Shown here: one piece after another, positions 33,811 to 55,122 of the stretch | How the letters are laid out: the number at the start of each line of letters is the position of its first letter | Numbering within the stretch: position 1 is the first letter of the stretch | From: Eubacteriales bacterium | GTDB taxonomy: Bacteria; Bacillota; Clostridia; Oscillospirales; QAKW01 | DNA length: 64,000 nucleotides | Assembly: GCA_045541555.1 (NCBI GenBank) | Contig: JAZQJH010000005.1 | Location: forward strand, 752-64,751 | Direction: 5' to 3' | Notes under the pieces: model-generated | Databases searched by the model: none | Seen by the model: only the letters and a program-made list of their open reading frames with translations | Told to the model about the DNA's origin: nothing | Made by a program: the position numbers and the translations under genes

Positions 33811-33970
33811 AAAAAGAGTGCAGATTTTGTCAATGCGACTGAAGGCGTATGTCGATACGCCGATAGGAGCATTGGCGGAAAGGAGAAAAATCAAAATCTG
33901 AAATCCGCTTTTGCGGATTTCTCCTATAAAAACTAAAAAAGGAAAGAGCAGAAACTCTTTCCTTTTTGTT
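33811..33970 (+). ncRNA. copy A of the repeated structured intergenic element
   Basis: Outer stem CAATGC (33831-33836) pairs with GCATTG (33869-33874). Inner hairpin GGCGTAT-GTCG-ATACGCC lies at 33844-33861. Hairpin AAATCCGC..GCGGATTT lies at 33901-33920. Hairpin GGAAAGAG..CTCTTTCC lies at 33941-33962. Confidence 0.5.
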
Positions 33971-34041: not shown

Positions 34042-34572
34042 TTAATAGTTGTAGCCCATTTCGAGAGCTTTGATATTCAGCTCCATCAGGTTGGCGCGCT
34101 TGGCGGAGACTACCTTTTTGAGGGCTTCGGTGATGTCGTCGAAGTTGACCAGTCCGGTCTCCTTGATCATCTTGCCCATCATGATCATATTGGCGAGGGT
34201 GGGAATGCCGGCATCCGCCGCCATCTTGGTGGCAGGGATATAGAAGGCATCTACGTCGCTGCGCTCGACCTTACGGCCGATCAAGGTACTATCCACGAAG
34301 ATCTTGCCGCCCTTGACGGTGGCTTCCTCGTATTTATCGAGAGAGGGCAGGTTCATGGCGATCAGCACGTCGGGGGTGGAGACGATGGGAGAGCCTACGG
34401 GATCATCGCTGAGGATGATGCTGCAGTTGGCGGTACCACCGCGCATTTCGGGACCGTAGGAGGGGAGCCAGCTGACTTCCTTTTGCTCCAGAAGACCCTT
34501 ATAAGCGATAAATTTACCGGCAAAGAGAACGCCCTGTCCGCCGAAACCGGCAATGAGAATTTGAGTTGTCAT
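34042..34572 (-). CDS. 2-oxoacid:ferredoxin oxidoreductase, gamma subunit
   Basis: The start is ILIAGFGGQGVLFAGK. 176 aa. Confidence 0.85.
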   Translation of the reverse strand: MTTQILIAGFGGQGVLFAGKFIAYKGLLEQKEVSWLPSYGPEMRGGTANCSIILSDDPVGSPIVSTPDVLIAMNLPSLDKYEEATVKGGKIFVDSTLIGRKVERSDVDAFYIPATKMAADAGIPTLANMIMMGKMIKETGLVNFDDITEALKKVVSAKRANLMELNIKALEMGYNY

Positions 34573-34575
34573 GGC

Positions 34576-35328
34576 TTATTTCTCCTCCTTTGCCCCGGAA
34601 CGGTCTTTATAAACGCCCAAAGGATAGTAAGGGATCATATTCTCGTCGATCCACTCCAAAGCCTTGGAGGGGGTCATACCCCAGTTGGTGGGGCAGGAAG
34701 AAACGACTTCAATAAGAGAGAAGCCTTTCCCCTCGATCTGGTTTTTGAAAGCCTTGAGGATCGCCTTCTTGGCGTTCTTGACGTTCTTCACGTTATTGAC
34801 TGCTACACGCTCGATGTACTCGGGGCCGTCCAGGGTGGAGAGCAGTTCGCTCACCTTGACGGGGTAGCCGGCGGTGGTGACGTCTCTGCCGTAGGGGGAG
34901 GTCTGGGTCACCTGCCCGGGCAGGGAGGTGGGCGCCATCTGACCGCCGGTCATGCCGTAGATGGCATTATTGACAAAGATGATGGTGATGTTTTCATTTC
35001 GGGTAGCGGCGTGAACCGTCTCGGCCATACCGATGGAGGCTAAGTCGCCGTCGCCCTGATAAGTAAAGATGACGTTCTCCGGCATACAACGCTTGAGACC
35101 GGTAGCGACTGCGGGGGCGCGGCCGTGAGCGGCCTCGACCATATCGCAGGCAAAGTAATCATAAGCCATAACGGCGCAACCAACCGGTGCAACACCGACG
35201 GTCTTGCCCACGACGCCCAGTTCATCCAGCGCCTCAGCGACCAAGCGGTGAATGATACCGTGGGTACAGCCGGGGCAATAATGGAGGGGAGCATCGGTCA
35301 ATGCTTTAGGTTTTTCAAATACGACCAT
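34576..35328 (-). CDS. 2-oxoacid:ferredoxin oxidoreductase, beta (TPP-binding) subunit
   Basis: YCPGCTHG and GDGD..IG motifs. 250 aa. Confidence 0.85.
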   Translation of the reverse strand: MVVFEKPKALTDAPLHYCPGCTHGIIHRLVAEALDELGVVGKTVGVAPVGCAVMAYDYFACDMVEAAHGRAPAVATGLKRCMPENVIFTYQGDGDLASIGMAETVHAATRNENITIIFVNNAIYGMTGGQMAPTSLPGQVTQTSPYGRDVTTAGYPVKVSELLSTLDGPEYIERVAVNNVKNVKNAKKAILKAFKNQIEGKGFSLIEVVSSCPTNWGMTPSKALEWIDENMIPYYPLGVYKDRSGAKEEK

Positions 35329-36389
35329 TATTGATTCTCCTTTGCAAGTTTTTCAATGGACTCCAGCACCTCTTCGGGGGTGGGAATCATACCGCCGACA
35401 CGGCAGCACAGCTCCACGGGCTTTTTGCAGCCGGTGGAAAGCTTGACGTCTTCGATCATCTGACCCATGGAAAGCTCCACAGAGAGGAATGCCTTGCATT
35501 GGTCAGCAGCCTTCGCCAGAACGTCCTTGGGGAAGGGCCAGAGGGTGATGGGACGGATCAGACCTACCTTGATGCCTGCCTTGCGGGCGGCGACCACAGC
35601 GTTTTTGGAAACGCGGGCGGCGATACCGAAGGCGACGACGCAGTACTCTGCATCCTCCATCATGAACTCTTCATACAGAACTTCGTTTTCCTCGATGGTC
35701 TTATACCGTTCGAAACGCTCGAAGTTGGTCTCTTCCAGAATTTCGGGCTTTAAGTAGAGAGAGTTGATGATATTATGCTTGCGCTCTTCCTTGGTGCCGC
35801 GCACTGCCCAGGGCTTCTCCACTTCTACGGGAGGAGTGTCCGGCAGTTCTACCGGCTCCATCATCTGACCCATGGTACCGTCGGCCAGCAGCATGGCAGG
35901 GACGCGGTATTTATCGGAAAGATCAAAGGCCTTGATGGTGAGGTCTGCCATTTCCTGAACGGAGGCAGGTGCCAGGACGATCAGGTGATAGTCGCCGTGA
36001 CCGCCGCCCTTGGTAGCCTGGAAATAGTCGGACTGGGAGGGCTGAATGCCACCCAAGCCCGGACCGCCACGCTGGACGTTAACGATCAGCGCCGGCAGAT
36101 CTGCACCGGCGATATAGGAGATACCCTCCTGCTTCAGGGAAACGCCGGGGCTGGAGGAAGAGGTCATAACACGGAAGCCGGCACCGGCAACGCCGTAGAC
36201 CATATTGATGGCTGCCACTTCACTCTCGGCCTGCAGGAAGGTGCCGCCGATCTTGGGCATCCGCTTGGCCATATAGGCCGCGATCTCTGTCTGGGGAGTG
36301 ATGGGATAACCGAAGTAATGGCGGCAGCCTGCCTTGATGGCGGCTTCTGCAATCGCTTCGTTACCTTTCATAAGTACTTTTTCTGCCAT
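35328..36389 (-). CDS. 2-oxoacid:ferredoxin oxidoreductase, alpha subunit
   Basis: MAEKVLMKGNEAIAEAAIKAGCRHYFGYPITPQTEI. ATG at 36389 with RBS GAGGTG. Confidence 0.85.
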   Translation of the reverse strand: MAEKVLMKGNEAIAEAAIKAGCRHYFGYPITPQTEIAAYMAKRMPKIGGTFLQAESEVAAINMVYGVAGAGFRVMTSSSSPGVSLKQEGISYIAGADLPALIVNVQRGGPGLGGIQPSQSDYFQATKGGGHGDYHLIVLAPASVQEMADLTIKAFDLSDKYRVPAMLLADGTMGQMMEPVELPDTPPVEVEKPWAVRGTKEERKHNIINSLYLKPEILEETNFERFERYKTIEENEVLYEEFMMEDAEYCVVAFGIAARVSKNAVVAARKAGIKVGLIRPITLWPFPKDVLAKAADQCKAFLSVELSMGQMIEDVKLSTGCKKPVELCCRVGGMIPTPEEVLESIEKLAKENQ

Positions 36390-36399
36390 TTTGAGCACC

Positions 36400-36606
36400 T
36401 CACTTCTCCACGGTGATCACGCAGTCGGGGCACATGGTGGCGCAGAATGCGCAGCCGATGCAGGCCGCCTGGTCGGTGATCACTGCGGGGGAATGTCCTT
36501 TCGCATTGATTTTGTCCTTGGCGATGGCGAGGATCTTCTTGGGGCAGGCGTCCACGCAGAGGGAGCAGCCTTTGCAAAGATCTTCGTTGAAGGTTACTTT
36601 TGCCAT
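36400..36606 (-). CDS. 2-oxoacid:ferredoxin oxidoreductase, delta (2x[4Fe-4S] ferredoxin) subunit
   Basis: 68 aa with CKGCSLCVDACP and CIGCAFCATMCP. ATG at 36606. Confidence 0.85.
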   Translation of the reverse strand: MAKVTFNEDLCKGCSLCVDACPKKILAIAKDKINAKGHSPAVITDQAACIGCAFCATMCPDCVITVEK

Positions 36607-36619: not shown

Positions 36620-37270
36620 TTAATAGTATTTCTTTTGCAAATCGAGGGGGAAGAAGTCTTCGCCGGTCTCTTTGCAAAGCTCCGCGGTAGCGGAGGTATA
36701 AACCACCGGCAAGCCGGCAAGAGCGGAAAGGGCTTCCGCCTTTTCCATGGTGTCCTTTACCGCTTGGAGGGTGGTATCTTCACCTAAATTGGAATTATTG
36801 ATGATGCCGGTACATTGGATATGCGCCGCCTGCTCGATCTCGCGCATGATGGTGAGCGCATCCTCCGGCGTGGGGGTCAGGGGACGGTAGAAATTGACGA
36901 CGAAATACATTTCATAGTCATTTTCCTCCAAGATCGCCGGTGCATACCGCCCGAGGGCGTAAGCACCTCGATCATCGCCGCCCACGTCCATCACCGCATG
37001 AAAGTCCCGGCGCTGAACCAGGCTATAAAGCTCGGCAGGCAGGGCAGGCAGATCCACGTTAGTATTGGCAAAGGCCGGAGAGATCAAGGGAATCCCTGCC
37101 TCCTCCAATTCCTTGGCGCTGTCCTTGGTGCGGAAATAGGGGTTGACGATGTCCAGGTCGGCAATCTTGACCGGCAGACCCTCTTTTTTCAACTTCAGAG
37201 CGAAGTTGACGGCCAGATTGGTCTTGCCGCTGCCGTAGTGACCGGCAAAAATATGTATTCTTTTAGCCAT
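36620..37270 (-). CDS. P-loop NTPase (MinD/ParA/SIMIBI-like) of unknown role
   Basis: The Walker A-like motif is FAGHYGSGKTNLA. 216 aa. The start overlaps the ilvE stop. Confidence 0.5.
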   Translation of the reverse strand: MAKRIHIFAGHYGSGKTNLAVNFALKLKKEGLPVKIADLDIVNPYFRTKDSAKELEEAGIPLISPAFANTNVDLPALPAELYSLVQRRDFHAVMDVGGDDRGAYALGRYAPAILEENDYEMYFVVNFYRPLTPTPEDALTIMREIEQAAHIQCTGIINNSNLGEDTTLQAVKDTMEKAEALSALAGLPVVYTSATAELCKETGEDFFPLDLQKKYY

Positions 37271-38342
37271 TGCAGACGAATTCGCTCCAGCCGAAGGGAT
37301 CCTCCTGCTTGCCCCACTGAATACCGGTCAGGTTATCGTAGAGCTTCTGGGTCAGAGGACCGATCTCGTTGTTGCAAACGGTGTACTCGGTGCCCTTATA
37401 GAAGAGATGACCGATGGGGGAGACGACGGCAGCGGTGCCGGTGCCCCAGGCTTCTTCCAGAGTGCCGTTCTGGACGGCGTCGAAGAGCTCATCCACGGAG
37501 AACAACCGCTCCTCTACCTCATAGCCCCAGGACTTCAAAAGCTCCACGCAGGACTTCCGGGTGATGCCGGGGAGGACGGAGCCGGTCAGCGCCGGGGTGA
37601 TGATCTTGCCGTTCACCTTGAACATGACGTTCATGGCACCGACTTCTTCGATATACTTACGCTCTACGCCGTCCAGCCAAAGAACCTGGGTATAGCCGTT
37701 GCGCTCGGCACGCTCGCCGGCGCGGAGAGAAGCGGCATAGTTACCGCCGCACTTGGCATAGCCGGTACCGCCGCGGACGGCACGGACATCCTCGGACTCG
37801 ATGGCGATCTTGACGGGGTTCAAGCCTTCGGCATAGTAAGCGCCCACGGGGGAGCAGATGATGGCGAAGGTGGCGTTATGGACGGCGTGGACGCCCAGAT
37901 GGGGGTCGTTACCGAAGAGGAACGGACGGATATAAAGGGAAGTGCCCTCGGAATGGGGAACCCAATCCTTTTCCAATTCCACGATGGTTTTGATGATATC
38001 CAAGCAGGCTTCCTCGTCGATCTCCGGCAGGCAAAGACGCTCTGCGGAGTTGTTCAGCCGCTTGATGTTCTCCATGGGGCGGAAGAGGCGGATGCTGCCG
38101 TCAGCAGCGCGGTAAGCCTTCATGCCCTCGAAGATCTCTGCACCGTAGTGCAGGACGGTAGAGGCCGGATGGATAGGCATCGGGCCAAAGGGGACGATGC
38201 GTGCATCATGCCAGCCCTCCTCCGTATTGTAGTCCATCAGGAACATATGGTCGGTAAAGATGCGGCCAAAGCCCAATTTGGACTCATCGGCAGGACGCTC
38301 CTTGGGAGCGGCAGTCTTGGTGATTTTGATTTCGTACTTCAT
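37263..38342 (-). CDS. ilvE: branched-chain amino acid aminotransferase
   Basis: 359 aa. FGRIFTDHMF, YGAEIFEGMKAY and the fold-type IV pattern are present. Confidence 0.9.
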   Translation of the reverse strand: MKYEIKITKTAAPKERPADESKLGFGRIFTDHMFLMDYNTEEGWHDARIVPFGPMPIHPASTVLHYGAEIFEGMKAYRAADGSIRLFRPMENIKRLNNSAERLCLPEIDEEACLDIIKTIVELEKDWVPHSEGTSLYIRPFLFGNDPHLGVHAVHNATFAIICSPVGAYYAEGLNPVKIAIESEDVRAVRGGTGYAKCGGNYAASLRAGERAERNGYTQVLWLDGVERKYIEEVGAMNVMFKVNGKIITPALTGSVLPGITRKSCVELLKSWGYEVEERLFSVDELFDAVQNGTLEEAWGTGTAAVVSPIGHLFYKGTEYTVCNNEIGPLTQKLYDNLTGIQWGKQEDPFGWSEFVCNG

Positions 38343-38363: not shown

Positions 38364-40658
38364 TTACAGCTTATTGCGTTGGATCTTACCGCTGACCGTC
38401 TTGGGAAGGCTATCCCGGAAGACGACCACACGGGGATATTTATAGGGCGCGGTGCGCGCCTTGACGTAATCCTGGATCTCTTTTTTGAGCTCGTCGGTGG
38501 GCTCGGTGCCCTTGACCAGCACGATGCTTGCCTTGACCACCTGGCCGCGAACCTCATCCGGCATGGCGGAGACGCCGCACTCCAGGACGTAGGGAAGCTC
38601 CATGATGACGTTTTCGATCTCGAAGGGTCCGATGCGGTAGCCGGAGGATTTGATGACGTCGTCTACCCGACCCACGTACCAGAAATAACCGTCTTCATCC
38701 CGCCAAGCGGTATCGCCGGTGTGATAATAGCCGTCGTGCCAGCATTCGGCGGTCTTTTCTTCGTCTTTATAGTAACCCTTGAAGAGGCCGCAGGGTGCGC
38801 CCTTGCTGACGTTGATACAGATCTCACCCACGTCACCCACCGGCACGTCCTTGCCGTCGGCATCCAGCAGATGGATGTCATAAAGGGGAACCGGCTTACC
38901 CATAGAGCCCAGCCGCGTCTTGGTACCTGCCAGATTGGCCAGCGCTACGGTAGTCTCGGTCTGACCGAAGCCTTCCATGATCTGCAGACCGGTGGCCTTT
39001 TCAAACTGACGGAATACCTCGGGGTTGAGGGCTTCGCCGGCGGTGGTCATATGCTCGATGGAAGAAAGATCGAATTTGGAAAGATCCTGCTTGATCATCA
39101 GCCGCAGCATGGTGGGCGGCGCGCAGAAGGTGGTGATATTATACTTGGCGAACATCGGCAGAATGTCGTCGGCATCGAAGCGATCGAAGTCGTAGACAAA
39201 GAGGCCGGCTTCGCAAAGCCACTGACCGTAGATCTTACCCCAGGCGGCTTTCGCCCAGCCGGTATCGGAGATGGTCAGGTGCAGACCCTCGGGATTGATG
39301 CAATGCCAATACTTGGCGGTGATCAGGTGACCCAAAGGATATTTATAACTATGCATGGCAATCTTGGGATTGCCGGTGGTGCCGGAGGTGAAGTACATCA
39401 GCATGGGATCGTCGCCGCAGGGAGCGCCCTCGCCTCGATCGTAGCGGCCGGTATAGAGCTCGTACTCTGCATCAAAGGAACGCCAGCCCTCCATGGTGCC
39501 GTTCACCATCAGCTTATGCTCCAGGGTGGGGCAATGGGGCGCGGCTTTATCCACTTCTACCGCCACGTTATCGTCGCAGGTGCAGACCACCATCTTGACG
39601 CCGGCTTTATTGATGCGGTATTCGATATCATGCTCTTTTAACTGGTTGGTGGCAGGGATGGCCACCGCGCCGATCTTATGCAACGCCAGTATACAGAACC
39701 AGAACTGATAGTGCCGCTTCAGCACCAGCATGACCTTATCGCCCTTTTGGATGCCCAAGGATTTAAAGTAGTTGGCAGTCTGGGAGGAGGCGCGCTTCAT
39801 ATCGGAGAAGGTGAAGCGGCGCTCGGTGCCGTCCTTGCTGATATGGAGCATCGCCAGCTTCTCCGGCTGCTCCCGACCCATCCGGTCGATGACGTCAAAG
39901 GCAAAGTTGAAGGAATTCTCATTCTTAAAGGAGATGGCCTTGGGGACGCCGTTCTCATCTTCGTCCACAAAAGCATAGTCCTGCCAGATGCGCTTGCGAT
40001 CTGCCACCTTCTTTTTCGCCGGGGCAATGAAGTCCCGGGTCTTGCCGGCGTGCACCAGCTTGGTGATGGGCTCGCTGGCAGGGTTCAGCACGATGGCGTA
40101 GAAGATACAGTCCTGATCCTCCACGGCGATCATGCCGTGGGGAGTGGAGGAGTCGTAATAAATACTGTCTCCTTCATGGAGGATCTCCACGTGGTCGCCT
40201 ACCTGCACTTTCAAAGCGCCCTTGACCACGATATCACATTCCTGCCCCTCATGGGTGGTCAGCTCGATATCCGCATTCTCGGACTGGGCATTATAGTCCG
40301 ATACCACGTAAAGGGGCTCTGCAATTCTGTTCTTAAAGGAAGATGCCAGATTATAATAGGTCATGCCGTGCGCCTTCTGGATCTCCTGGCCTTCACCCTT
40401 ACGAGTGACGGTATAGCCTGCCAGACGAGGACCGGTACCTTCGATGATCTCGGTGACGTCCACGTTCAGCGCCAAAGCGCAGCGATAGAGGAACGCAAAG
40501 TTCAGATCCTGCTCGCCTGCCTCGCAGCGAAGATATTCCTCTTCGCTGACGCCGGTCTTCAGCGCCATCTCCGCCTGGGTATAGCCAATAATTTCTCGCA
40601 GCGTTTTGATACGCTGCGCCATTTCCTGAATTTTAAATTCAAGTCCGGTTGCTTTCAT
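38364..40658 (-). CDS. fusion protein: XRE HTH + cupin + AMP-forming short/medium-chain acyl-CoA synthetase (behind the Val T-box)
   Basis: The N-terminus reads RIKTLREIIGYTQAEMALKTGVSEEEY (HTH) then HEGQE..GD..H..GDS.YYDS..PH (cupin). The C-terminus carries YFTSGTTGNPK, ISDTGW, YHTGD and GRVDDVIKSSGYRIGPFEIE. Confidence 0.8.
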   Translation of the reverse strand: MKATGLEFKIQEMAQRIKTLREIIGYTQAEMALKTGVSEEEYLRCEAGEQDLNFAFLYRCALALNVDVTEIIEGTGPRLAGYTVTRKGEGQEIQKAHGMTYYNLASSFKNRIAEPLYVVSDYNAQSENADIELTTHEGQECDIVVKGALKVQVGDHVEILHEGDSIYYDSSTPHGMIAVEDQDCIFYAIVLNPASEPITKLVHAGKTRDFIAPAKKKVADRKRIWQDYAFVDEDENGVPKAISFKNENSFNFAFDVIDRMGREQPEKLAMLHISKDGTERRFTFSDMKRASSQTANYFKSLGIQKGDKVMLVLKRHYQFWFCILALHKIGAVAIPATNQLKEHDIEYRINKAGVKMVVCTCDDNVAVEVDKAAPHCPTLEHKLMVNGTMEGWRSFDAEYELYTGRYDRGEGAPCGDDPMLMYFTSGTTGNPKIAMHSYKYPLGHLITAKYWHCINPEGLHLTISDTGWAKAAWGKIYGQWLCEAGLFVYDFDRFDADDILPMFAKYNITTFCAPPTMLRLMIKQDLSKFDLSSIEHMTTAGEALNPEVFRQFEKATGLQIMEGFGQTETTVALANLAGTKTRLGSMGKPVPLYDIHLLDADGKDVPVGDVGEICINVSKGAPCGLFKGYYKDEEKTAECWHDGYYHTGDTAWRDEDGYFWYVGRVDDVIKSSGYRIGPFEIENVIMELPYVLECGVSAMPDEVRGQVVKASIVLVKGTEPTDELKKEIQDYVKARTAPYKYPRVVVFRDSLPKTVSGKIQRNKL

Positions 40659-40689
40659 ACTCGTAAAATTTCCTTTCCCGGCGAGCCTA

Positions 40690-40985
40690 TTTTAAGAAAA
40701 TAAGGGGCTCGCCTCAAAGATATGATTTCTTTGAGACGAGCCTTGAAAATACTTCAATACCCGCGGTACCACTCAAATTGCATCTTGCGATGCCCCTCAG
40801 GCTCCATTAAGCCTTATGCATTAACGCAGCAGTCACGGGGAGGTTCTACTAAGGAATTCCTTTTCTTCCTCCCGGCTCAGAAGCTACAAACATCAGCATC
40901 CTCAGAACGGCTCGCACCGACCGCCGCTTCTCTGACTTCGGAAAATCTCATGCACTCTTCGTCACAGCCTTAAAAGTAGTTTATC
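40690..40985 (-). promoter_or_regulatory. T-box leader, putative Val specifier (GUA, plus-strand 40885-40887)
   Basis: Minus-strand elements: promoter TTGACA / 17 nt / ATAAAC; stem I GCTGTGACGAAG...CTTCTGAGC; AGAGA and GGTGCGAG; T-box AATTTGAGTGGTACCGCGGG; terminator 40701-40744 plus U-run. Confidence 0.75.
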
Positions 40986-41044
40986 ACATCTTGCGAGAAT
41001 TTGTCAATAGTTTATTAATATATTTATATATTATTTAGACTGCC

Positions 41045-41210
41045 GAAAAAGCGTGCAGATTTCGTCAACTCGACCGAAGGCGTATGTGATACGTCGATGG
41101 GAGAGTTGGCGGAAAGCAGAAAATTTCAATCAAATCCGCATTGGCGGATTTTTCCTTATCGAAAAAACAGAGAGAAAGAGTACAAACCCTCCCTCTCTCT
41201 GCGTTTTTAA
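41045..41210 (+). ncRNA. copy B of the repeated structured intergenic element
   Basis: Outer stem CAACTC (41066-41071) pairs with GAGTTG (41103-41108). The inner hairpin lies at 41079-41095. Hairpin AAATCCGC..GCGGATTTTT lies at 41132-41153. A second hairpin lies at 41168-41201. Confidence 0.5.
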
Positions 41211-41272
41211 AATAATTGAAAAACCAGTGTTTTTTGCTTTTCTGCGGTCTGTGCCTTTTTCGGGAGTCGAGG

Positions 41273-43540
41273 TTAGAGCTTATTTCTTTGGATTTTACCG
41301 CTGATGGTCTTGGGCAGTTCGTCCTTGAAGACGATGACCCGGGGATACTTATAGGGGGCGGTATGGGTCTTGACGTAGTTCTGGATCTCCTTTTTGAGTT
41401 CCTCGGTGCCTTCGGTGCCGGGGGTCAGCACGATGCTGGCCTTGACCACCTGACCGCGGATCTCATCGGGAGCGGCGGAAACGCCGCATTCCAGGACGTA
41501 GGGAAGCTCCATGATGACGCTTTCGATCTCAAAGGGTCCGATGCGGTAGCCGGAGGATTTGATGACGTCGTCGATCCGGCTGACGTACCAGAAATAACCG
41601 TCCTCGTCCCGCCATGCGGTATCGCCGGTGTGATACATGCCGTCGTACCAGGCGTTGTCGGTCTTCTCCTGATCGCGGTAATACTGCTTAAAGAGACCGC
41701 AGGGGATGGACTTATCGGTATGGATGACGATTTCGCCGGTCTCGCCATCTGCCACCGGGTTGCCCTCGGGGTCAACGATATCCACGTCGAACTGGGGAGA
41801 TGCCTTGCCCATAGAGCCGATCTTGGGGGCGGTGCCGACCAGGTTGCCGATGGCAAGGGTGGTCTCGGTCTGACCGAAGCCCTCCATGATCTCCAGGCCG
41901 GTGGCATCCCGGAACTGCTTGAATACTTCGGGGTTCAAGGCCTCGCCGGCGGTGGTCATATGATGGATGGAGGAGAGATCGTATTTGGAGAGATCTCCCT
42001 TGATGAGCATTCTCAGCATGGTGGGAGGAGCGCAGAAGGTGGTGATATTGTACTTGGCGAACATGGGGAGGATCTCGTCGGCATCAAAGCGGTCGAAATC
42101 GTAGACGAAGACGGCGCCCTCGCAGAGCCATTGACCGTAGAGCTTACCCCAGAGGGATTTGCCCCAGCCGGTATCGGAGATGGTCAGATGCAAGCCGACC
42201 CGCTCACAACAATGCCAGTACTTAGCGGTAACAAAGTGCCCCAGGCCATAAGTATGCTTATGGGCGGCCATCTTGGGATTGCCGGTGGTGCCGGAGGTGA
42301 AGAACATCAGGGCGATCTCATCACCGCCGCCGCAATCGGCAGTCCGCTCAAATTTGGTGGAGAACCGGGCAAATTCGGTGTTGAAATCATGCCAGCCCTC
42401 TTTCGGCTGACCGACGATGATCTTGGTCTTGAGGCAGTCGCATTTTTCTGCGGCGGCTGCGGCGATATCGGCGGTATCGCCGTCGGAGGTGCAGACGATG
42501 GCGCTGACACCGGCAGCGGTATAACGATATTCAAAGTCGTGCTCCTTGAGCTGGTTGGTGGCCGGGATGGCGATGGCACCCAGCTTATGCAGGGCGATCA
42601 TGGCGAACCAGAACTGATAGTGGCGCTTCAGCACCAGCATGACCCGGTCGCCCTTCTTGATGCCCAGAGAAGCAAAATAGTTTGCGGTCTGGTTGCTGTA
42701 TTTCTTGATATCCTTGAAGGTGAAGCGGCGCTCATTTTTATGAACGTCCAGATGGAGCATCGCCAGCTTATCGGGATACTTATCGGCGATGGCGTCCACG
42801 ATGTCAAAGCCGTAGTTGAAGTGTTCGGTATTGACGAACTCGATCTTTTGCAGACTGCCATGCTCGTCTTCCTGGGTCTTGACGAACTTTTCGCAGATGA
42901 GCTCCTCAGACTTTTTGGCGGTCACGATGCTCTTGCGGACGGTAGACTCCTTGGTCTCCTCGCCGGGCAATACCACTGCCAAAAAGACGCAGTCGGCACC
43001 GTCTACGGCGATCATGCCGTGGGGAGTAGAAGAGTTATAATAGATGCTGTCGCCCTCATGCAGGAGTTCGGTATGTTCGCCGATCTGCACCTTCAGGGAG
43101 CCGCTGAGGATCAGGTCAAATTCCTGACCGCTGTGCTTGGTGAGGTGGATGGGCTTATTCTGCTGAGCGGGATCGTATTCATAGCGTACGTGGTACGGCT
43201 CCGCGATTTTATCCCGGAACATCGGTGCGAGGTTGCGGATGTCAATGCCGTCCTCCTGCGCGGTGGTCTGACCCTGACCCTTCCGGGTGACGGTATAGCT
43301 GGAAAGACGGGCGGAATGACCCTCCAAAAGCTCGGTCAGCTCCACGTCAAAAGCCAATGCACACTTATGTATAAAGGTAAAGGGAATATCCGCTTGAGCG
43401 TTTTCGTAAATCAGATACTGCTCCCGGCTGACTTCTGTTTTGGCAGCCATTTCGCCGACCGACCAGCCCAGAATATCACGCATCTCCTTGATACGGGCGG
43501 CGATCTCAGTCAATCGAAGCATTGCGGTGTTGGTGTTCAT
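41273..43540 (-). CDS. fusion protein: XRE HTH + cupin + AMP-forming acyl-CoA synthetase, paralog (behind the Ile T-box)
   Basis: Same architecture and long identical blocks (DFDRFDAD.ILPMFAKYNITTFCAPPTML). The true start is the ATG at 43540 (MNTNTAML), after the leader terminator. The ORF-track start at 43657 lies inside the T-box. Confidence 0.8.
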   Translation of the reverse strand: MNTNTAMLRLTEIAARIKEMRDILGWSVGEMAAKTEVSREQYLIYENAQADIPFTFIHKCALAFDVELTELLEGHSARLSSYTVTRKGQGQTTAQEDGIDIRNLAPMFRDKIAEPYHVRYEYDPAQQNKPIHLTKHSGQEFDLILSGSLKVQIGEHTELLHEGDSIYYNSSTPHGMIAVDGADCVFLAVVLPGEETKESTVRKSIVTAKKSEELICEKFVKTQEDEHGSLQKIEFVNTEHFNYGFDIVDAIADKYPDKLAMLHLDVHKNERRFTFKDIKKYSNQTANYFASLGIKKGDRVMLVLKRHYQFWFAMIALHKLGAIAIPATNQLKEHDFEYRYTAAGVSAIVCTSDGDTADIAAAAAEKCDCLKTKIIVGQPKEGWHDFNTEFARFSTKFERTADCGGGDEIALMFFTSGTTGNPKMAAHKHTYGLGHFVTAKYWHCCERVGLHLTISDTGWGKSLWGKLYGQWLCEGAVFVYDFDRFDADEILPMFAKYNITTFCAPPTMLRMLIKGDLSKYDLSSIHHMTTAGEALNPEVFKQFRDATGLEIMEGFGQTETTLAIGNLVGTAPKIGSMGKASPQFDVDIVDPEGNPVADGETGEIVIHTDKSIPCGLFKQYYRDQEKTDNAWYDGMYHTGDTAWRDEDGYFWYVSRIDDVIKSSGYRIGPFEIESVIMELPYVLECGVSAAPDEIRGQVVKASIVLTPGTEGTEELKKEIQNYVKTHTAPYKYPRVIVFKDELPKTISGKIQRNKL

Positions 43541-43565
43541 GGTGTTTTCTCCTTTACAAAATTTA

Positions 43566-43837
43566 AAAATAAAAAGACTCGTCTCAAATTTCTTTGAGAC
43601 GAGTCTTGAATAAACAATACCCGCGGTACCACTCAAATTGCATCCAAAGGATGCCACTCAGGCTCTATCAAGCCGTATGCATTCACGCAGCAATCACGAA
43701 GGGCGCCTACCTATCGGACCCTCAGCTCGGAAGTGATGGGAAATTCAGCAGTCCTTTACCGGGATCACACCACCCCCGGCTCTCTTTGAAAATCGTTGCC
43801 GATTCCGTCTTCGTCATCGCTTTTACAATATGAAATT
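43566..43837 (-). promoter_or_regulatory. T-box leader, putative Ile specifier (AUC, plus-strand 43735-43737)
   Basis: Promoter TTGACA (43867-43872, rc) / 17 nt / TAAAAT (43844-43849, rc). Stem I is GCGATGACGAAG...CTTCCGAGC. AGAGAG and GGTGGTG are present. The T-box is AATTTGAGTGGTACCGCGGG. The terminator AAGACTCGTCTC..GAGACGAGTCTT is followed by a U-run. Confidence 0.8.
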
Positions 43838-43888
43838 ATGATTATTTTAGCACCGCTTTTCGGCGTTGTCAATAGTTTTTTGAAAAAA

Positions 43889-46339
43889 TTATTTCAGTCC
43901 CAATTGCTCGATGGAATTTTCTCTCATCTTGTATTTCAGGATCTTACCGGCGGCGTTCATGGGGAAGGAATCGGTGAGGATGAAATAGCGGGGTACCTTA
44001 TGCATCGCCATATGGGCGGCGCCATAAGCGCGCATCTCTTCCTCATCGGAGGTCTGACCCTCATGCAGGATGATCCAGGCGCAGCATTCCTCGCCGTAGC
44101 GCTGGTCGGGAACGCCCACCACCTGCACGTCGCGCACCTTGGGATGGGTGAGATAGAATTCCTCGATCTCCCGGGGGTAGAGGTTTTCACCGCCGCGGAT
44201 GATCATATCCTTCAGCCGTCCGGTAATCTTGTAGTAACCGTCGGGGGTGCGGCAGGCAATATCGCCGCTATGCAGCCAGCCATCGGCGTCGATGGCCTCG
44301 GCAGTCGCCTTGGGCATTTTATAATAGCCCTTCATGATGTTGAAGCCGCGTGCCACGAACTCGCCGTTCTCGCCGTCCGGCAATTCTTCGCCGGTCTCCG
44401 GGTCGATGATCTTACACTCCACGCCGGGGAAGGCGGAACCGACGGTTTCCACCCGGTGATCCAGATCCTCATTGACCTCGCCCATGGTACAGCCGGGGGA
44501 TGCCTCGGTCTGACCATAAACGCTGATGATCTCGCGCATATTCATCTCCACCGAGGCGCGGCGCATCAGATCTGCCGGGCAGTTGGCACCGGCCATGATG
44601 CCGGTACGCATATGGGAGAAATCGGTCTTGCCGAAATCCTCATGGTTAAACATGGCGATGAACATGGTCGGCACGCCGTTAAAGCAGGTGATCTTTTCAT
44701 CGTTGATGCAGGCCAGCGAGGACTTGGGAGAGAAGTAGGGCATGGGGCAGATGGTGCCGCCATGGGTCATCAGGTTGGTCATGGAAAGGACCATGCCGAA
44801 GCAATGGAACATCGGCACCTGGATCATCATACGATCCGCGGTGGAGATATCCATCCGGTCGCCGATGGTCTTGCCGTTATTGATGATATTGCGGTGGGTC
44901 AGCATGACGCCCTTGGGGAAGCCGGTGGTACCGGAGGTGTACTGCATATTGCAGACGTCGTCCGGCTTGACGGCCGCCGCCAGGCGGCGAACCTCCTCCC
45001 GGGGAATGGCATCGCCTTTTTCCACGAACTCATCCCACTCTAAGCAGCCCGCCATCTTAAAGCCGACGGTAATGACGTTGCGCAGGAAGGGCAGATTTTT
45101 GGAATAGAGGGGCTCGCCGGGCCTGGTATTCTTCAGCTCGGGGCAGAGCTCTTCGATAATCCCCTTATAATCGGAATCTCTGCAGTTTTCGATCATGACG
45201 AGGGTATGGGTATCGGACTGGCGGAAGAGGTATTCCGCCTCATGGATCTTATAAGCGGTATTGACTGTTACCAGCACTGCACCGATCTTGACACTGGCCC
45301 AGAAGATGATAAACCATTGGGGGATATTGGTCGCCCAGATGGATACGTGGTGACCGGGCTTGACGCCCATAGCAATGAGGGCGGCTGCCGTGCGGTCCAC
45401 GTCCTCCCGGAACTGGGCATAGGTACGGGTATAATCCAGGGTGGTGTACTTAAAGGCGTACTGGTCGGGGTAGCGCTCCACCATCTCGTCCAATACCTGA
45501 GAGAAGGTCAGGTCGATGACCTCGTACTTCTTCCAGGGGAAGGTGCCGGTCTTATCCCGGTTATAAAAGATCTCCCGGGGCTTTGCGGCGGTGGGGAGTT
45601 TGCCGGAAATATAGCTGATGAAATGGGTCAATACAATATCGGGGTCGGTGATCTCTTCATTCCAGTCCACCGCCAGATAGCCCTCGTAGTTGAGGGAGCG
45701 GAGGGCGTTCATGAAGTCTGCAACCGGCAGAACGCCGTCACCCAAGAGGACGTCCTTGCCCTCTTTGCGGTCACCGATCCGGACGTAGTTGATATAAGCA
45801 CCCAAGTTCTGAATGGTGGTATCGGCATCTTCCTTGGCGGTGAAATAGGTCTCCCGGATATTCCAGCAGACGCCGATGCAGGCAGAGCCGAAGCTGCGGA
45901 TGATCTCGATGATCTTTTGGGTGTCTGCCAGAGCGCCGACGGTCTCGATCAGGATGAGAGCGCCATTTTTCTCTGCTTTTTTAATGGCAGGGGCGAAGAC
46001 CTTTTTCAGCGCATCGGAATCCGGCTCGCCGATCTGCACCACTACGCCCAATGCGGAGGCACGCGCCGCCAGGCTGACGTATTTTTTTAGCAGTTCGGGA
46101 TCGGTGGCGGACGTCACCGGCTCGGGGCAGGTAAGGAAAGAAACGCCGATATGGCGATTGATCAGCTTGCGCTTGGCGGCGGCGTTGACCGCAGAGCGGA
46201 GGATGCTATCCTCATGGGCTTCCTTTTCGGCGATGGGGTCGAAAAGCTCAAAGCCGTCAAAGCCGTATTCAGCCGTCAGATTGCAGAGGTTGATATAACT
46301 CTCTGCCGGTACATTTTTGGTTGAAAAAACTAATTTCAT
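43889..46339 (-). CDS. fusion protein: xylose-isomerase-like TIM barrel + FadD-type AMP-forming acyl-CoA ligase
   Basis: 816 aa. The N-terminal ~260 aa follow the sugar-phosphate isomerase/epimerase-like pattern (..GFDGFELF..). The C-terminus carries MQYTSGTTGFPKGVMLTH, WLHSGD and GRLKDMIIRGGENLYPREIE. Confidence 0.7.
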   Translation of the reverse strand: MKLVFSTKNVPAESYINLCNLTAEYGFDGFELFDPIAEKEAHEDSILRSAVNAAAKRKLINRHIGVSFLTCPEPVTSATDPELLKKYVSLAARASALGVVVQIGEPDSDALKKVFAPAIKKAEKNGALILIETVGALADTQKIIEIIRSFGSACIGVCWNIRETYFTAKEDADTTIQNLGAYINYVRIGDRKEGKDVLLGDGVLPVADFMNALRSLNYEGYLAVDWNEEITDPDIVLTHFISYISGKLPTAAKPREIFYNRDKTGTFPWKKYEVIDLTFSQVLDEMVERYPDQYAFKYTTLDYTRTYAQFREDVDRTAAALIAMGVKPGHHVSIWATNIPQWFIIFWASVKIGAVLVTVNTAYKIHEAEYLFRQSDTHTLVMIENCRDSDYKGIIEELCPELKNTRPGEPLYSKNLPFLRNVITVGFKMAGCLEWDEFVEKGDAIPREEVRRLAAAVKPDDVCNMQYTSGTTGFPKGVMLTHRNIINNGKTIGDRMDISTADRMMIQVPMFHCFGMVLSMTNLMTHGGTICPMPYFSPKSSLACINDEKITCFNGVPTMFIAMFNHEDFGKTDFSHMRTGIMAGANCPADLMRRASVEMNMREIISVYGQTEASPGCTMGEVNEDLDHRVETVGSAFPGVECKIIDPETGEELPDGENGEFVARGFNIMKGYYKMPKATAEAIDADGWLHSGDIACRTPDGYYKITGRLKDMIIRGGENLYPREIEEFYLTHPKVRDVQVVGVPDQRYGEECCAWIILHEGQTSDEEEMRAYGAAHMAMHKVPRYFILTDSFPMNAAGKILKYKMRENSIEQLGLK

Positions 46340-46344: not shown

Positions 46345-47712
46345 TTAACCCTCAAATACGATCTTGTTGAGTGCATTGACGTAGGCGCGGATGCAGGCAC
46401 CGATAATATCGGTGGAAACGCCGTTGCCGGAATAAAGCTTGCCGTTTGCACGCAGGCGAATCAGCGCGGAGCCCACCGCCTCGCGGCCTTTGGTGACGGC
46501 TTGAACCTGGAAATCGTCCAGCTCATAATGATGGCCGACGATCTGCTCAATGGCGTGGAAGGCGGCGTCGATGGGGCCGTCGCCGGTGGAAACACCGGTC
46601 AGCTTTTCGCCGTCTTTTTCCAGGGTCAGATTGGCGGTGGCGGTAATGATATTGCCGCTGTTGACGACGTAATTGATGACGTGGAAGGTAGAAGGTACCT
46701 GCATGGCGGCGGAGGCGACGATAGCTTCCATCTCCCGGGCACCGATGGTCTCTTTCTTCTCGATGACGCGCTTGAATTCCTCATAGACCTTGCCCTGATC
46801 CTCATCGGAGAGGTCGTAGCCCAGCTCTTTTACCGCGGCGGCGATCTCAGCCAAGGTGGCGGTATTGCCGAGGGTGGCGGTGCTTTCGGTCTCTGCTACG
46901 GCAGGGGCGGCAGTCCGTTCTTCCTTGCCGCCGGCGATGGAGGCGATGATCTTATGGATCGCCGTATTGTCCAGATTGGTGGCGGCGGAGAGGGTGTCCT
47001 CTTTGGCGCGGAAGATGTCTGCCAGAATATCGGCGCGGAGCGCACCCTTGCAGGCCGCGGTCTTGATGCCGTCGGCACCGGCTTTGACTGCCTCAATGGC
47101 AGAGGAGGCAGCCATGGAAAGGGCATCAGAGGGCTGGACGTAGACCTGAAGACCGCAGGCGGTCTTGATCTCCCGGACGATGGCTGTATAATCCTCGGGG
47201 AAGGAGATGCCGCTATCGTCGCAGACGGTGATGGCGGAAGCGCCGTTTTCCTCAGCGGTCTTGCAGCAGGCGGCGATAAAGCCGTCCTCTGCGCGGGAGG
47301 CATCCCGGGCGACCAGCTCTACCCTGGCGCAAAGAGCGGATGCTTCTTTACAAAGAGCCGCCAATTTTTCCAGCATCTTGGGGGCTTTCAAATGATAGGT
47401 ATATTCCATCTGCACCGTAGAGGTGGGCAGGACGATCTGCAGGATGGGATCCTGCGCGTCCTTGATGCACGCCCAAGCGGCGGCAGGCGCATCGCCCACG
47501 TCGATAGCAACAGACGCATTTTTGACAGCGGAAGCAATGGTTCTGGCGACCACTGCATCCTCTTTTTCGTTCAAAAGCGCGGGAAGCTCAATGGTGTCCA
47601 CCCCGGCTGCGTCCAGCAGCTGGGCAATATTCAGCTTCTCCCGGAAGGAGAGGGCATTTTTTTGCTCGGCATAAGCGCGCAACGTAACGTCGGAAACAAT
47701 GATCTTTTTCAT
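46345..47712 (-). CDS. 2-isopropylmalate-synthase-like protein with degenerate catalytic motifs and an intact LeuA regulatory/dimerisation domain
   Basis: DVTLRAYAEQ replaces DTTLRDGEQ, and VYVQPSDALSMAA replaces H.HND.G.A. The C-terminal GDGPIDAAFHAI..GSALIRL..G.GVSTDII is conserved. The ATG at 47712 follows the leader terminator. Confidence 0.7.
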   Translation of the reverse strand: MKKIIVSDVTLRAYAEQKNALSFREKLNIAQLLDAAGVDTIELPALLNEKEDAVVARTIASAVKNASVAIDVGDAPAAAWACIKDAQDPILQIVLPTSTVQMEYTYHLKAPKMLEKLAALCKEASALCARVELVARDASRAEDGFIAACCKTAEENGASAITVCDDSGISFPEDYTAIVREIKTACGLQVYVQPSDALSMAASSAIEAVKAGADGIKTAACKGALRADILADIFRAKEDTLSAATNLDNTAIHKIIASIAGGKEERTAAPAVAETESTATLGNTATLAEIAAAVKELGYDLSDEDQGKVYEEFKRVIEKKETIGAREMEAIVASAAMQVPSTFHVINYVVNSGNIITATANLTLEKDGEKLTGVSTGDGPIDAAFHAIEQIVGHHYELDDFQVQAVTKGREAVGSALIRLRANGKLYSGNGVSTDIIGACIRAYVNALNKIVFEG

Positions 47713-47730: not shown

Positions 47731-48012
47731 TAAAAAATCCCGCAAAGAGAAAAAACTCTTTGCGGGATGATCAAACAAATAGAATGACCACGGTACCACC
47801 CGGCCTTGCTTCCTTTTTTAGGGGAAACCACTTTACGGACTCCATCAAGCCCTTGATCTATGACGGGATCTCCCGGGCACTCTTACTAAAGTTCAGAACA
47901 CCAGCTCCGATACGAGACAGGCACCTGCGTCCTCTACCGCCTCGCACCGTCCGGCGGCTCTCTGAAAGAAGCGTTGCAAGCCCTTAATATCATCATCGCA
48001 TTTTTTAAATTT
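47731..48012 (-). promoter_or_regulatory. T-box leader, putative Leu specifier (CUC, plus-strand 47914-47916)
   Basis: Promoter TTGACA (48043-48048, rc) / 17 nt / TAAAAT (48020-48025, rc). Stem I is GCGATGATGATA...TATCGGAGC. AGAGAG and GGTGCGAG are present. The T-box is GGCCGGGTGGTACCGTGG. The terminator CCCGCAAAGAG..CTCTTTGCGGG is followed by a U-run. Confidence 0.8.
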
Positions 48013-53102: not shown

Positions 53103-54857
53103 TTATGCAGTCTTTTTCTTTTGTACCATATAGATGGCGGTAAGAACGGCTAAGAGCAGGAGCAGGGAAACGCCCAGAATGACGAAGACGTTCTGGATAA
53201 AGCCTGCCATCAGATAACCGACCAAGGAAACGGCGGCGACGGTGAGTGCGTAGGGCAGTTGGGTGGCTACGTGGTTGACGTGGTCACTCTTGGCACCGGC
53301 GGAAGCCATGATGGTGGTATCGGAGATGGGGGAGCAATGGTCACCGCAGACCGCACCGGACAGGCAGGCGGCGATGCAGATGACGACCATGGCAGGGATG
53401 GCGGCGCTATCGGTAACGCCGGCCAACTGACCCTCAAAGACACCGGTAACGATGGGAATCAGGATACCGAAGGTGCCCCAAGAGGTACCGGTGGCAAAGG
53501 AAAGACCGCAAGCCACCAGGAAGAGCAGGGCAGGCAGCAGGATCTGCAGTGCCTTGGCACTCTCTACCAGGGCGGCCACGTAGCCGCTGGCATCCAAAAG
53601 CCCGGTCATGGATTTCAGACCCCAGGCGAAGGTCAGGATCAGGATGGCGGGAACCATCTGCTTGAAGCCCTCGGGGATGGCGGCGGTGCACTCTTTGAAG
53701 GAAAGCACGCGGCGGCACATAAAATAGATCATATTCAAGATCAAAGCGGCGATGGAGCCGACGGCCAGACCATAGGCGGCATCGCAGTTGGCAAAGGAAT
53801 TGATAAAGCTTTCGCCGGAGAAGAAGCCGCCGGTATAGATCATACCTGCTACGCAGAGGATGATGAGGATGGCCACCGGGATGATCAGATCCATGACCTT
53901 GCCGCGGGGATTGGATTTTTCATCCTCTTCGCCGGAGAACTGCTCGCCGCCGGAGGTATAAAGATCGCCGTTCAGGGCGTTCTTCTCAAAACGCTTCATG
54001 GGACCGAAATCCATGCCGGTAAAGGCAATGAAAAGCACCATGGCGATGGTCAGCAGGGCATAGAGGTTAAAGGGGATGGTCTGGATAAAGAGCGCCAGTC
54101 CGTTGACTCCCTCCACGGTGCCGGAAACGGCAGCCGCCCAGGAAGAGATGGGGGCAATAATACAGATGGGGGCGGCGGTGGCGTCGATGAGATAGGCCAG
54201 CTTTGCCCGGGAGATGCGTTGCTTATCGGTGATAGGGCGCATGACGCTGCCGACGGTCAGACAGTTGAAATAGTCGTCCACAAAGATGAGGGCGCCCAGA
54301 CCAAAGGTGGCCAGCTGCGCACCGCGGCGGTTTTTGATCTTGGCGGATGCCCATTCGCCGTAGGCGCGGCTGCCGCCGGCGTGGTTCATCATCACCACAA
54401 TGGCGCCCAGCACTACCAGGAAGATCAGAATGCCGACGTTCCATTCATCTGCCAGGTTGGCGATAAAGCCTTCATGAACCACGGCGTTGAACATGGTTTC
54501 AAAGCTGAAACCGGTCTGGCTGATGGCATAAAGCACACCGCCGGAAAGAATACCAAGGAAGAGAGAGGAATAGACCTCCTTGGTGATCAGCGCCAGTACA
54601 ATGGCGATGATCGGGGGGAGCAGTGCCCAGAAGGTGCCTTCAAAGAGAGAGGAATAGGTTTCTTCGGTCTCTTCTGAGCCTGCCCCCTCGATGGGAGCGT
54701 CTTCAGTCACCGTTGCTTCGGTGAGGGTGGGTTCTGCCGGAGCGGCAGAGTCGTCCAGTGCAGCGGCGGAGCAGGCAAAAATCCCCAGCATCCCGATGAC
54801 CAGGATGAGGGCGAAGAAGCGGCTCAGCAGCGTTCTGTTGTTTGAGATAAAATTCAT
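53103..54857 (-). CDS. NhaC-family transporter (candidate lysine transporter)
   Basis: 584 aa and polytopic. ATG at 54857 with RBS AGGAGGG. It sits directly behind a lysine riboswitch. Confidence 0.75.
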   Translation of the reverse strand: MNFISNNRTLLSRFFALILVIGMLGIFACSAAALDDSAAPAEPTLTEATVTEDAPIEGAGSEETEETYSSLFEGTFWALLPPIIAIVLALITKEVYSSLFLGILSGGVLYAISQTGFSFETMFNAVVHEGFIANLADEWNVGILIFLVVLGAIVVMMNHAGGSRAYGEWASAKIKNRRGAQLATFGLGALIFVDDYFNCLTVGSVMRPITDKQRISRAKLAYLIDATAAPICIIAPISSWAAAVSGTVEGVNGLALFIQTIPFNLYALLTIAMVLFIAFTGMDFGPMKRFEKNALNGDLYTSGGEQFSGEEDEKSNPRGKVMDLIIPVAILIILCVAGMIYTGGFFSGESFINSFANCDAAYGLAVGSIAALILNMIYFMCRRVLSFKECTAAIPEGFKQMVPAILILTFAWGLKSMTGLLDASGYVAALVESAKALQILLPALLFLVACGLSFATGTSWGTFGILIPIVTGVFEGQLAGVTDSAAIPAMVVICIAACLSGAVCGDHCSPISDTTIMASAGAKSDHVNHVATQLPYALTVAAVSLVGYLMAGFIQNVFVILGVSLLLLLAVLTAIYMVQKKKTA

Positions 54858-54884
54858 CTTTATCCCTCCTATAAAAAATAATAC

Positions 54885-55122
54885 AAAAAAACAGCCCGTA
54901 AAGAACGTGGAATACATTCTTTACGGGCTATTATCATAGTCTTGTAAAAAAGATGGCACTCCACAAATCCTGTGACAGTCCGGCGCATATTCTGCGGCGA
55001 CCCAGCAACCAAATTCCGGGGGTCTGGAACCTGGAAACTTCGGCGGTAGTGCCTTTCACCGGTGCTCCTTTTAAACCCATTGAGTACCGTTACTGATCAA
55101 TACCGCGCCTCCATCGGCTATT
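54885..55122 (-). promoter_or_regulatory. lysine riboswitch (L-box) with intrinsic terminator
   Basis: Minus-strand motifs in order are GAGGCGC, AGTAA, GGTGAAAGG, CGCCGAAG, GCTGGG, CTGTCA and GTGGAGTGC. The terminator is AGCCCGTAAAGAA..TTCTTTACGGGCT plus T7. The promoter is TTGACA / 18 nt / TACTAT. Confidence 0.8.

Follow-up and report, generated by a model that had tools for sequence, protein, structure and literature searches.

Tandem T-box-preceded HTH-cupin-ligase fusions in a Clostridia genome and a proposed salvage route to valine and isoleucine

Fusion genes and their T-box leaders

The DNA analysed (the window; 64,000 nucleotides of an Eubacteriales bacterium, assembly GCA_045541555.1, contig JAZQJH010000005.1, positions 752 to 64,751) carries two paralogous genes, each encoding an N-terminal module with a helix-turn-helix (HTH)-like domain and a cupin fused to an acyl-CoA ligase of the Macs/MbcS type, and each standing behind a T-box leader. 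Features are on the minus strand unless stated otherwise. Paralog A (764 amino acids, aa) occupies 38364-40658, stop codon included, and paralog B (755 aa) 41273-43540; for B the ATG following the ribosome-binding site AAAGGAG was chosen as the start, the mechanical open reading frame (ORF) extending to a GTG at 43657. The two proteins are 61% identical over their full length. In both, Pfam families were matched above curated cut-offs, namely HTH_3 or HTH_19 (aa 15-75), Cupin_2 (aa 120-190), AMP-binding (aa 250-630) and AMP-binding_C (aa 671-758). The initial annotation, made from the sequence of this DNA, had described an HTH and a cupin fused in frame to a complete ligase, and this description holds, as the N-terminal region matched both the HTH_3 and the Cupin_2 profiles and both ORFs were intact, with no overlooked frameshift or internal stop to split them. 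In paralog A the module consists of an acidic HTH-like helical domain with five helices in the AlphaFold2 model (aa 1-75, 40434-40658; HTH_3, 29.8 bits) and a cupin barrel (aa 88-195, 40074-40397; Cupin_2, 48.4 bits) containing the invariant residues His136, Glu140 and His174. A flexible interdomain tether with low predicted local distance difference test (pLDDT) scores and a relaxed ratio of non-synonymous to synonymous substitution rates (dN/dS) follows (aa 196-245, 39924-40073), and leads to the acyl-CoA ligase (aa 246-764, 38364-39923, including the stop codon), which is typed by its match to structure 3etc and by its AMP-binding and AMP-binding_C domains.

Both genes are preceded by matches to the Rfam T-box model RF00230, at 40729-40974 for leader A (78.6 bits, E = 1e-16) and at 43592-43826 for leader B (84.5 bits, E = 4e-18), and a third leader, C, missed by the initial annotation, was located at 47760-48005 (91.2 bits, E = 1e-18). 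The matches were obtained in the E-value mode of Rfam, with model positions 1-219 covered (a full-length match for A and B), and all scores (78.6-91.2 bits) lie just under the gathering cut-off of 93 bits; at that gathering score no T-box was reported in the window. Leaders A and B each contain a kink-turn (K-turn), an AGAGA bulge, a GGUG distal loop, the T-box sequence UGGUACCGCG and a terminator. The sequence UGGUACCGCGG was found in both, antiterminator pairing was visible in the cmscan alignment, and a terminator scan gave 15-bp stems followed by T runs at 40742-40706 (A) and 43607-43574 (B). Like known branched-chain T-boxes of RF00230, the leaders thus show the full anatomy, including K-turn, specifier loop, AG bulge, distal loop, UGGU and competing terminator and antiterminator. 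Unit B has a strong promoter of the sigma-70 type with TTGACA, a 17 nt spacer and TAAAAT with a TG extension (43844-43872; 11/12 consensus matches), the position of which is conserved in orthologs, and unit A another of that type with TTGACA, an 18 nt spacer and TAAACT, again with a TG extension (40978-41007; 10/12 consensus matches); a strong promoter also precedes leader C (48048-48020). An intrinsic-terminator-like hairpin with a 14-bp stem and a T run lies 3' of gene B (41167-41202), and is missing from many orthologous loci, in which promoter A is found 10-30 nt past the B stop codon.

Specifiers were read as the codon together with the one base immediately 5' of the basal Stem I helix. 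This gave GUA (Val) at 40887-40885, then G at 40884, for leader A, and AUC (Ile) at 43737-43735, then A at 43734, for leader B, the same two codons as had been assigned in the initial annotation; leader C carries CUC (Leu) at 47916-47914, and the three tandem T-box units of the window read Leu, Ile and Val. The similarity of leaders A and B was 0.72, as compared with 0.57 for A and C, 0.63 for B and C, and 0.57 +/- 0.02 for shuffles, and the blocks quoted earlier as evidence of a paralogous 3' half were present in both. In the T-box family, uncharged tRNA is sensed by codon-anticodon pairing and induction follows when the corresponding amino acid is short. From their anatomy and from the mechanism of the family, leaders A and B are regarded with high confidence as tRNA-sensing RNA switches. 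Uncharged tRNA-Val would be bound through the GUA of leader A and uncharged tRNA-Ile through the AUC of leader B, pairing of the tRNA 3' end with the UGGU of the T-box bulge would stabilise the antiterminator against the leader terminator, and each leader would be read through only at shortage of its own amino acid. The single tRNA gene of the window is tRNA-Val(GAC) (13708-13784, plus strand), which reads GUC and GUU; the GUA of leader A would need a tRNA-Val(UAC) encoded outside the window.

Orthologous loci and the split form

The N-terminal module was scanned against species-representative genomes, with at least 592 confirmed matches, by which the fusion counts as abundant; the fusion proteins are annotated only as 'AMP-binding protein'. 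For comparison, 80 related loci, one per genome, were retrieved, which together with the window contain 130 fusion genes. All 80 are from uncultured gut or rumen Clostridia-type metagenome-assembled genomes (MAGs), labelled Acutalibacteraceae, Oscillospiraceae, Ruminococcus, Faecousia and similar. Most loci with sufficient flanking sequence, in dozens of species-level genomes, had a B-like gene approximately 2.6 kb upstream of the A-like one. Specifiers were called by eye, by a K-turn context rule and by a parser-independent read. A Val specifier (GUA or GUC) was found for 71/71 A-type genes with a T-box, and the Ile specifier AUC for 47/47 readable B-type leaders; the specifiers were constant while the adjoining loop bases varied across species, and the same partition was returned by a separate scan of every T-box motif in the loci. 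Since the partition is perfect across loci, the duplication with retargeting is taken to be old and maintained, and not a local accident. These counts, together with the recurring B-then-A tandem, support the earlier proposal that the gene had been duplicated with its T-box and then retargeted. Duplication of a T-box followed by a change of specifier is a mode of T-box evolution recognised in comparative studies. The few fusion genes without a leader lie directly behind the preceding gene or in another context.

Several individual loci depart from the common arrangement. In L031, L038, L049 and L063, A lies directly behind B, or B directly behind a TIM-barrel ligase gene (described below), without a T-box of its own, and several ligases would there depend on one upstream leader. 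In 12-13 B-type leaders (L004, L019, L033, L034, L037, L044, L048, L052, L059, L062, L066 and L077) AUC is followed by C rather than by the usual T-box purine. The closest relative of the window, an Eubacteriales MAG (L001, 95-96% identity), has about 220 nt extra between the leader B terminator and the B start codon (about 4200-4745 of that locus). In a Faecousia locus (L071, about 1340-1790) no T-box was present upstream of the fusion gene, where instead a repeated element containing GTCATTGCGAGGAGCGCAGCGACGCGGC was seen. Concerted evolution of leaders A and B was also considered and set aside as a weak effect, A-B identity being 0.758 within the same genome and 0.715 across genomes, with the same-genome B leader ranking first in 11 of 37 cases.

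The module also occurs as a separate gene. Standalone relatives of about 190 aa keep the acidic 'S-x-E-E-Y...E-x-G' helix and the His/Glu/His triad, and in 6/7 sampled contexts, which include Hydrogenoanaerobacterium, Ligaoa and Zongyangia, the standalone gene lies 1-124 nt upstream of a same-strand ligase gene (about 550 aa). Cultured species with the split form are Hydrogenoanaerobacterium saccharovorans, Ligaoa zhengdingensis and Zongyangia hominis. The two genes are separated by 1-4 nt in several of these split pairs, and the end of the cupin gene contains a GAGGAGG in L081 and L083. For 5/6 split pairs an upstream T-box reading AUC was found; as T-box(Ile), module and ligase are all present in them, the partnership of the three is wider than the fusion. 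The split proteins show approximately 50% identity in the module and 57% in the ligase to both A and B, as compared with 71% between the A and B ligases, and the duplication is therefore placed later than the divergence from the split lineages. Because the leaders of the split outgroup operons read AUC in 5/5 readable cases, Ile is suggested as the ancestral specifier and Val as derived. In this history, leader and gene would have been duplicated in tandem long ago, and the specifier would later have changed, probably in the direction Ile to Val. One standalone protein, P0356 (L088, 4001-4573), is encoded without an adjoining ligase, between genes for a HAD hydrolase and for short-chain dehydrogenase/GFO_IDH proteins, which shows that linkage to a ligase is not universal for the module.

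The N-terminal module

Values of dN/dS were 0.09-0.12 for the HTH-like domain and 0.06-0.07 for the cupin (0.09 and 0.07, respectively, in paralog A), 0.05 for the ligase and 0.17-0.20 for the tether (aa 196-245). As the values for the module are close to that of the ligase, the module is considered functional and under strong purifying selection. Amino-acid identity in the tether was 0.25-0.40, and residues 192-222, with pLDDT 26-38, are predicted to be disordered. His136, Glu140 and His174 were invariant in 119/119 fusions and align with the iron ligands of HppE (GHAGNEF...PH); Asp164, Arg16 and Arg21 were invariant alongside the triad. Lineage-discriminating positions were defined as those at least 90% conserved within each type and different between types, using 67 A-type and 52 B-type full-length proteins. 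Eight were obtained, of which seven lie in the module (R59K, I72L, I93T, A96E, M99I, Y101I and L116Y) and one in the ligase, a distribution expected if the module recognises something paralog-specific.

Searched against known structures, the family profile gave equal-best matches to 1y9q, a putative regulator (7e-11), and, over the full length, to HppE (2.6e-10). The AlphaFold2 model of the module (pLDDT 86.8) was compared using Foldseek, which placed HppE first (1zz9_C, E = 2.1e-14, TM-score 0.48, the score being only this high because the orientation of the domains differs), then 1y9q (TM-score 0.38), and then Psf4, MPnS and HEPD. Since an enzyme matches the module as well as 1y9q does, the HTH plus cupin architecture alone does not imply a regulator. 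HppE is a homotetrameric Fe(II) enzyme with an all-helical domain and a cupin (PMC9088020). The module resembles it in fold (top match), in the aligned His/Glu/His (a predicted metal site) and in the acidic helical domain, but differs from it in having only about 20% identity and in its hosts, which are gut or rumen Clostridia-type MAGs; no phosphonate genes were found in the window or in the related loci examined.

Net charge and contact residues were used as a sequence proxy for a DNA-binding surface. Mean net charge of the helical domain was -5.6 in A-types, -6.4 in B-types and -7.1 in standalone relatives, as compared with +6 for 434 Cro, +2 for 1y9q, 0 for an in-window HTH_3/S24 repressor-type protein and -5 for the HppE alpha-domain. 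The 434 Cro contacts Lys27-Gln28-Gln29-Ser30 align with Ser-Glu-Glu-Glu in A and with varying residues (Glu, Leu or Val) in B-types. Palindromic AT-rich stretches are present in the window immediately upstream of its -35 boxes (41016-41033 and 43871-43893), but a conserved palindrome was absent from approximately 110 orthologous promoters aligned at -35 and inspected by eye, without a formal motif search, and the inverted repeats were not taken as evidence of an operator. XRE-cupin regulators (PuuR, PauR, PsdR, ErfA; template 1Y9Q) have the same two Pfam domains in the same order and are similar in size to the module (about 185 aa). True members act locally as free-standing repressors, binding palindromes as dimers (PMC7901475), whereas the present module forms one protein with an enzyme or is encoded immediately before it, is acidic, has a 'recognition helix' that starts with Glu, and goes with no operator conserved among the promoters inspected.

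The initial annotation had taken the architecture as that of a transcription factor and suggested a moonlighting or autoregulatory DNA binder; this was not supported, given the acidic domain, the Glu residues at contact positions, the absence of a conserved palindrome and the match to HppE, HEPD and MPnS. The module probably does not bind DNA, and its probable role is that of a partner of the ligase which binds a ligand or a metal. Of the options raised earlier, the third, control of the ligase by the cupin, is favoured here. The module would work with the ligase, tethered in cis in these proteins and as a separate, co-translated subunit in other genera, and would bind a paralog-specific small ligand (end product or substrate), thereby tuning ligase activity or assembly. 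Tentatively, it may represent an unrecognised, ligand-sensing regulatory partner of adenylate-forming ligases that subjects each ligase to separate control by end product or substrate. IlvN is a known case of a small subunit that binds a ligand, is encoded beside its catalytic partner and gives end-product feedback. The comparison with IlvN/IlvH of acetolactate synthase, and with the C-terminal domain of LeuA, is by analogy only, as these have other folds and no cupin.

BirA is an adenylate-forming enzyme with an N-terminal HTH, and binds DNA through a basic winged helix. The likeness to the fusions is again one of analogy only. It is improbable that the module is a working XRE-cupin DNA-binding sensor through which the ligase, in the manner of BirA with biotinyl-AMP, represses its own or other promoters on binding ligand or acyl-adenylate. 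HTH_3 and HTH_19 are matched above Pfam cut-offs, the HTH region is under purifying selection and the window does contain palindromes upstream of its -35 boxes, but these palindromes are not conserved, many A promoters lie 10-30 nt past the B stop, the net charges of -5.6 (A) and -6.4 (B) depart from those of 434 Cro, 1y9q and the in-window HTH_3 protein, and the residues at the Cro contact positions depart from those of 434 Cro. Nor does the partnership with the ligase suit a repressor, since a 1:1 fusion, or in several split pairs a distance of 1-4 nt to the ligase start, is the pattern of an enzyme subunit, and the T-boxes already supply regulation. The best sequence match, 1y9q, is the structural template for true XRE-cupin repressors (PMC7901475) and speaks for DNA binding.

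A second catalytic activity is also unlikely. The module would in that case be an HppE-like mononuclear metalloenzyme acting on the substrate or product of the ligase (as an isomerase, epimerase or hydrolase-type enzyme), and the fusion a two-enzyme protein, as might be read from the invariant triad aligned with the HppE iron ligands, the invariant Asp164, Arg16 and Arg21, the best structural neighbours, all enzymes (HppE, Psf4, MPnS and HEPD), and the coupling of the module gene to the ligase gene in split genomes. The route from acid to acyl-CoA, 2-oxoacid and amino acid proposed below is, however, already complete, with no missing step, and paralog A would need no epimerase, isobutyrate being achiral. 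Oxidant-dependent chemistry of the HppE type is unlikely if the hosts are strict anaerobes, as is assumed from general knowledge of the group, and the low identity to HppE and the lack of nearby phosphonate-pathway genes point the same way.

Should the module be a regulatory partner of the ligase, control would be exerted at two levels, the T-box reading demand through uncharged tRNA and the cupin reading a small molecule, and the 'XRE family transcriptional regulator' fold, annotated in thousands of genomes, would include a large non-DNA-binding branch. The locus illustrates that an HTH_3 plus Cupin_2 architecture is insufficient to call a transcription factor, and the module serves as a pointer to an unstudied accessory module of acyl-CoA ligases.

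Predicted substrates and the proposed salvage route

The C-terminal 519 residues of paralog A match MacsMa (3etc) over its whole length (E = 2e-193), and scores for AMP-binding and AMP-binding_C were 227 and 74 bits. The ligase core motifs FTSGTTGNPK, YHTGD (shared with MacsMa) and the C-terminal SGKI were present in the alignments, and the pocket Trp259 of MacsMa is kept in both paralogs, as the W of KAAWGK in A and of KSLWGK in B; the B pocket motif DTGWGK has Gly, as in MacsMa. MbcS was the best NCBIfam family, with 440.1 bits for A and 452.7 bits for B against an equivalog cut-off of 850, which leaves both proteins as relatives of that family. The sole discriminating position of the ligase, five residues N-terminal to the pocket Trp, is Ala469 in 67/67 A-types and Gly in 52/52 B-types, the latter as Gly254 of MacsMa. 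A bulkier residue in the enzyme for the smaller acid fits the predicted substrates. As a general code for isobutyrate and 2-methylbutyrate, Ala versus Gly was rejected; it is perfect in the fused clade and fails in two split outgroup ligases, and was retained as a clade-specific marker only. The preferred substrate of MacsMa of Methanosarcina acetivorans is 2-methylbutyrate (PMC10455477), and MbcS activates 2-methylbutyrate and isobutyrate but is poor with isovalerate (PMC10026030). Paralog A is accordingly labelled a predicted isobutyrate-CoA ligase and paralog B a predicted 2-methylbutyrate-CoA ligase. For MacsMa and MbcS, these two papers make no mention of an N-terminal HTH-cupin module or a T-box, unlike the window proteins, and the role described for MbcS is supply of lipid primers, whereas amino-acid salvage is proposed for the window ligases. 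A divergent 758-aa member of the fusion family, P0157, has the degenerate phosphate-binding motif LQSYSYGMAK in place of FTSGTTGNPK and may be a catalytically dead ligase that retains the module.

Ligase A is the first gene of an operon that continues with IlvE, a P-loop NTPase, a ferredoxin, VorB and the beta and gamma subunits, and ends at a terminator at 33936-33967. IlvE (37263-38342) is a branched-chain amino acid aminotransferase (NF009897, 480.6 bits, cut-off 307). The P-loop NTPase (216 aa, 36620-37270) gave weak CbiA/ParA-NUBPL-like Pfam matches and matched no NCBIfam family; nearly all loci of sufficient reach have it in this place, after the ligase and before the ferredoxin/Vor genes, and it might serve the oxidoreductase as an Fe-S maturation or assembly factor. 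The conserved 4Fe-4S ferredoxin subunit (68 aa from MAKVTF, 36400-36606; Fer4 families) is followed by the genes of a 2-oxoisovalerate:ferredoxin oxidoreductase (34042-36398), comprising VorB (35328-36398), beta (34576-35328) and gamma (34042-34572); VorB scored 566 bits against a cut-off of 399 for NF005507, and the NCBIfam families of beta and gamma were also matched. The order B, A, (IlvE), P-loop NTPase, ferredoxin, VorB, beta, gamma, (IlvE) recurs in approximately 50 loci.

Rumen and gut bacteria have long been described physiologically as making branched-chain amino acids out of branched short-chain fatty acids. Formation of acyl-CoA is the direction driven by AMP-forming ligases. Ligase A would convert isobutyrate to isobutyryl-CoA, the oxidoreductase would carboxylate isobutyryl-CoA reductively to 2-oxoisovalerate, and IlvE would transaminate this to valine. 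Ligase B would convert 2-methylbutyrate to 2-methylbutyryl-CoA, from which the same two downstream enzymes would lead to isoleucine. The biosynthetic direction is preferred because T-box induction occurs at shortage, the ligases are AMP-forming, and ligase A is co-transcribed with the oxidoreductase and IlvE; together with homology and gene order, the direction of T-box control is the basis on which the pathway is proposed. The order of steps is that of the route established long ago from the physiology of rumen bacteria. Its mention in PMC7356843 concerns leucine.

The balance of evidence leans towards a T-box-gated salvage cluster in which Val is made from isobutyrate and Ile from 2-methylbutyrate, and towards a partner module that is HppE-like and probably does not bind DNA. 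Within this reading, confidence in the pathway assignment is high and that in the function of the module is moderate to low. A number of observations weigh against it. Gene B is closed by its own terminator, the vor genes and ilvE stand behind the Val-specific leader, and salvage leaves a rise of the downstream enzymes at an Ile-only shortage unaccounted for. Substrates of A and B, as of every family member, are predictions from sequence, A and B are relatives and not equivalogs of MbcS, and at the position of Ala469 the outgroup split ligases behind Ile T-boxes have one Met and one Ala. The full-length AlphaFold model (pLDDT 67, predicted template modelling score 0.56) shows no confident docking of the module on the ligase. 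The HTH_3/HTH_19 scores, and a match to 1y9q as good as that to HppE, are compatible with DNA binding, and as the His/Glu/His pattern is also present in PuuR, a true regulator, the triad cannot separate a sensor from an enzyme. The remaining alternative, that the acyl-CoAs feed branched-chain fatty acid synthesis with only an indirect link to Val and Ile, is very improbable, for although MbcS, the closest named family, serves membrane lipid synthesis in Staphylococcus (PMC10026030), the present genes stand behind T-boxes that are each specific for one amino acid, A shares a transcription unit with IlvE and the 2-oxoisovalerate oxidoreductase in approximately 50 genomes, and lipid primers would not call for separate Val and Ile sensing.

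Under the salvage reading, the cluster supplies named candidates for the whole route in these Clostridia, in which the genes for branched-acid activation are poorly defined, and the T-box specifiers act as built-in labels predicting which ligase serves which amino acid. Known branched-chain T-boxes control tRNA synthetases, ilv/leu genes and transporters, whereas the window leaders control acyl-CoA ligases and a ferredoxin oxidoreductase route. Taken singly, the components all fall into known classes. Neither their combination nor the ligase-associated module has been described in the searchable open-access literature, in which no prior description was found of T-box control of an acyl-CoA ligase, of a cupin-HTH-ligase fusion or of T-box control of the oxidoreductase route.

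Leader C lies upstream of unit B and controls a LeuA-like gene (46345-47712; HMGL-like and LeuA_dimer domains, below the LeuA cut-offs) and a gene for an 816-aa fusion of a xylose-isomerase-like TIM barrel to a FadD-like acyl-CoA ligase (43889-46339), which is unrelated to the A/B fusion. T-boxes were found upstream of LeuA-like genes in 21 related loci, and the TIM-barrel-ligase fusion accompanies the cluster in many related loci, upstream or downstream; as a guess, it might be the Leu-side counterpart, for example in isovalerate activation. Further along the window, a lysine riboswitch (54946-55121; 88.4 bits, above its gathering score) lies upstream of a gene for a 604-aa Na+/H+ antiporter family protein (53103-54917), which is presumably a lysine transporter.

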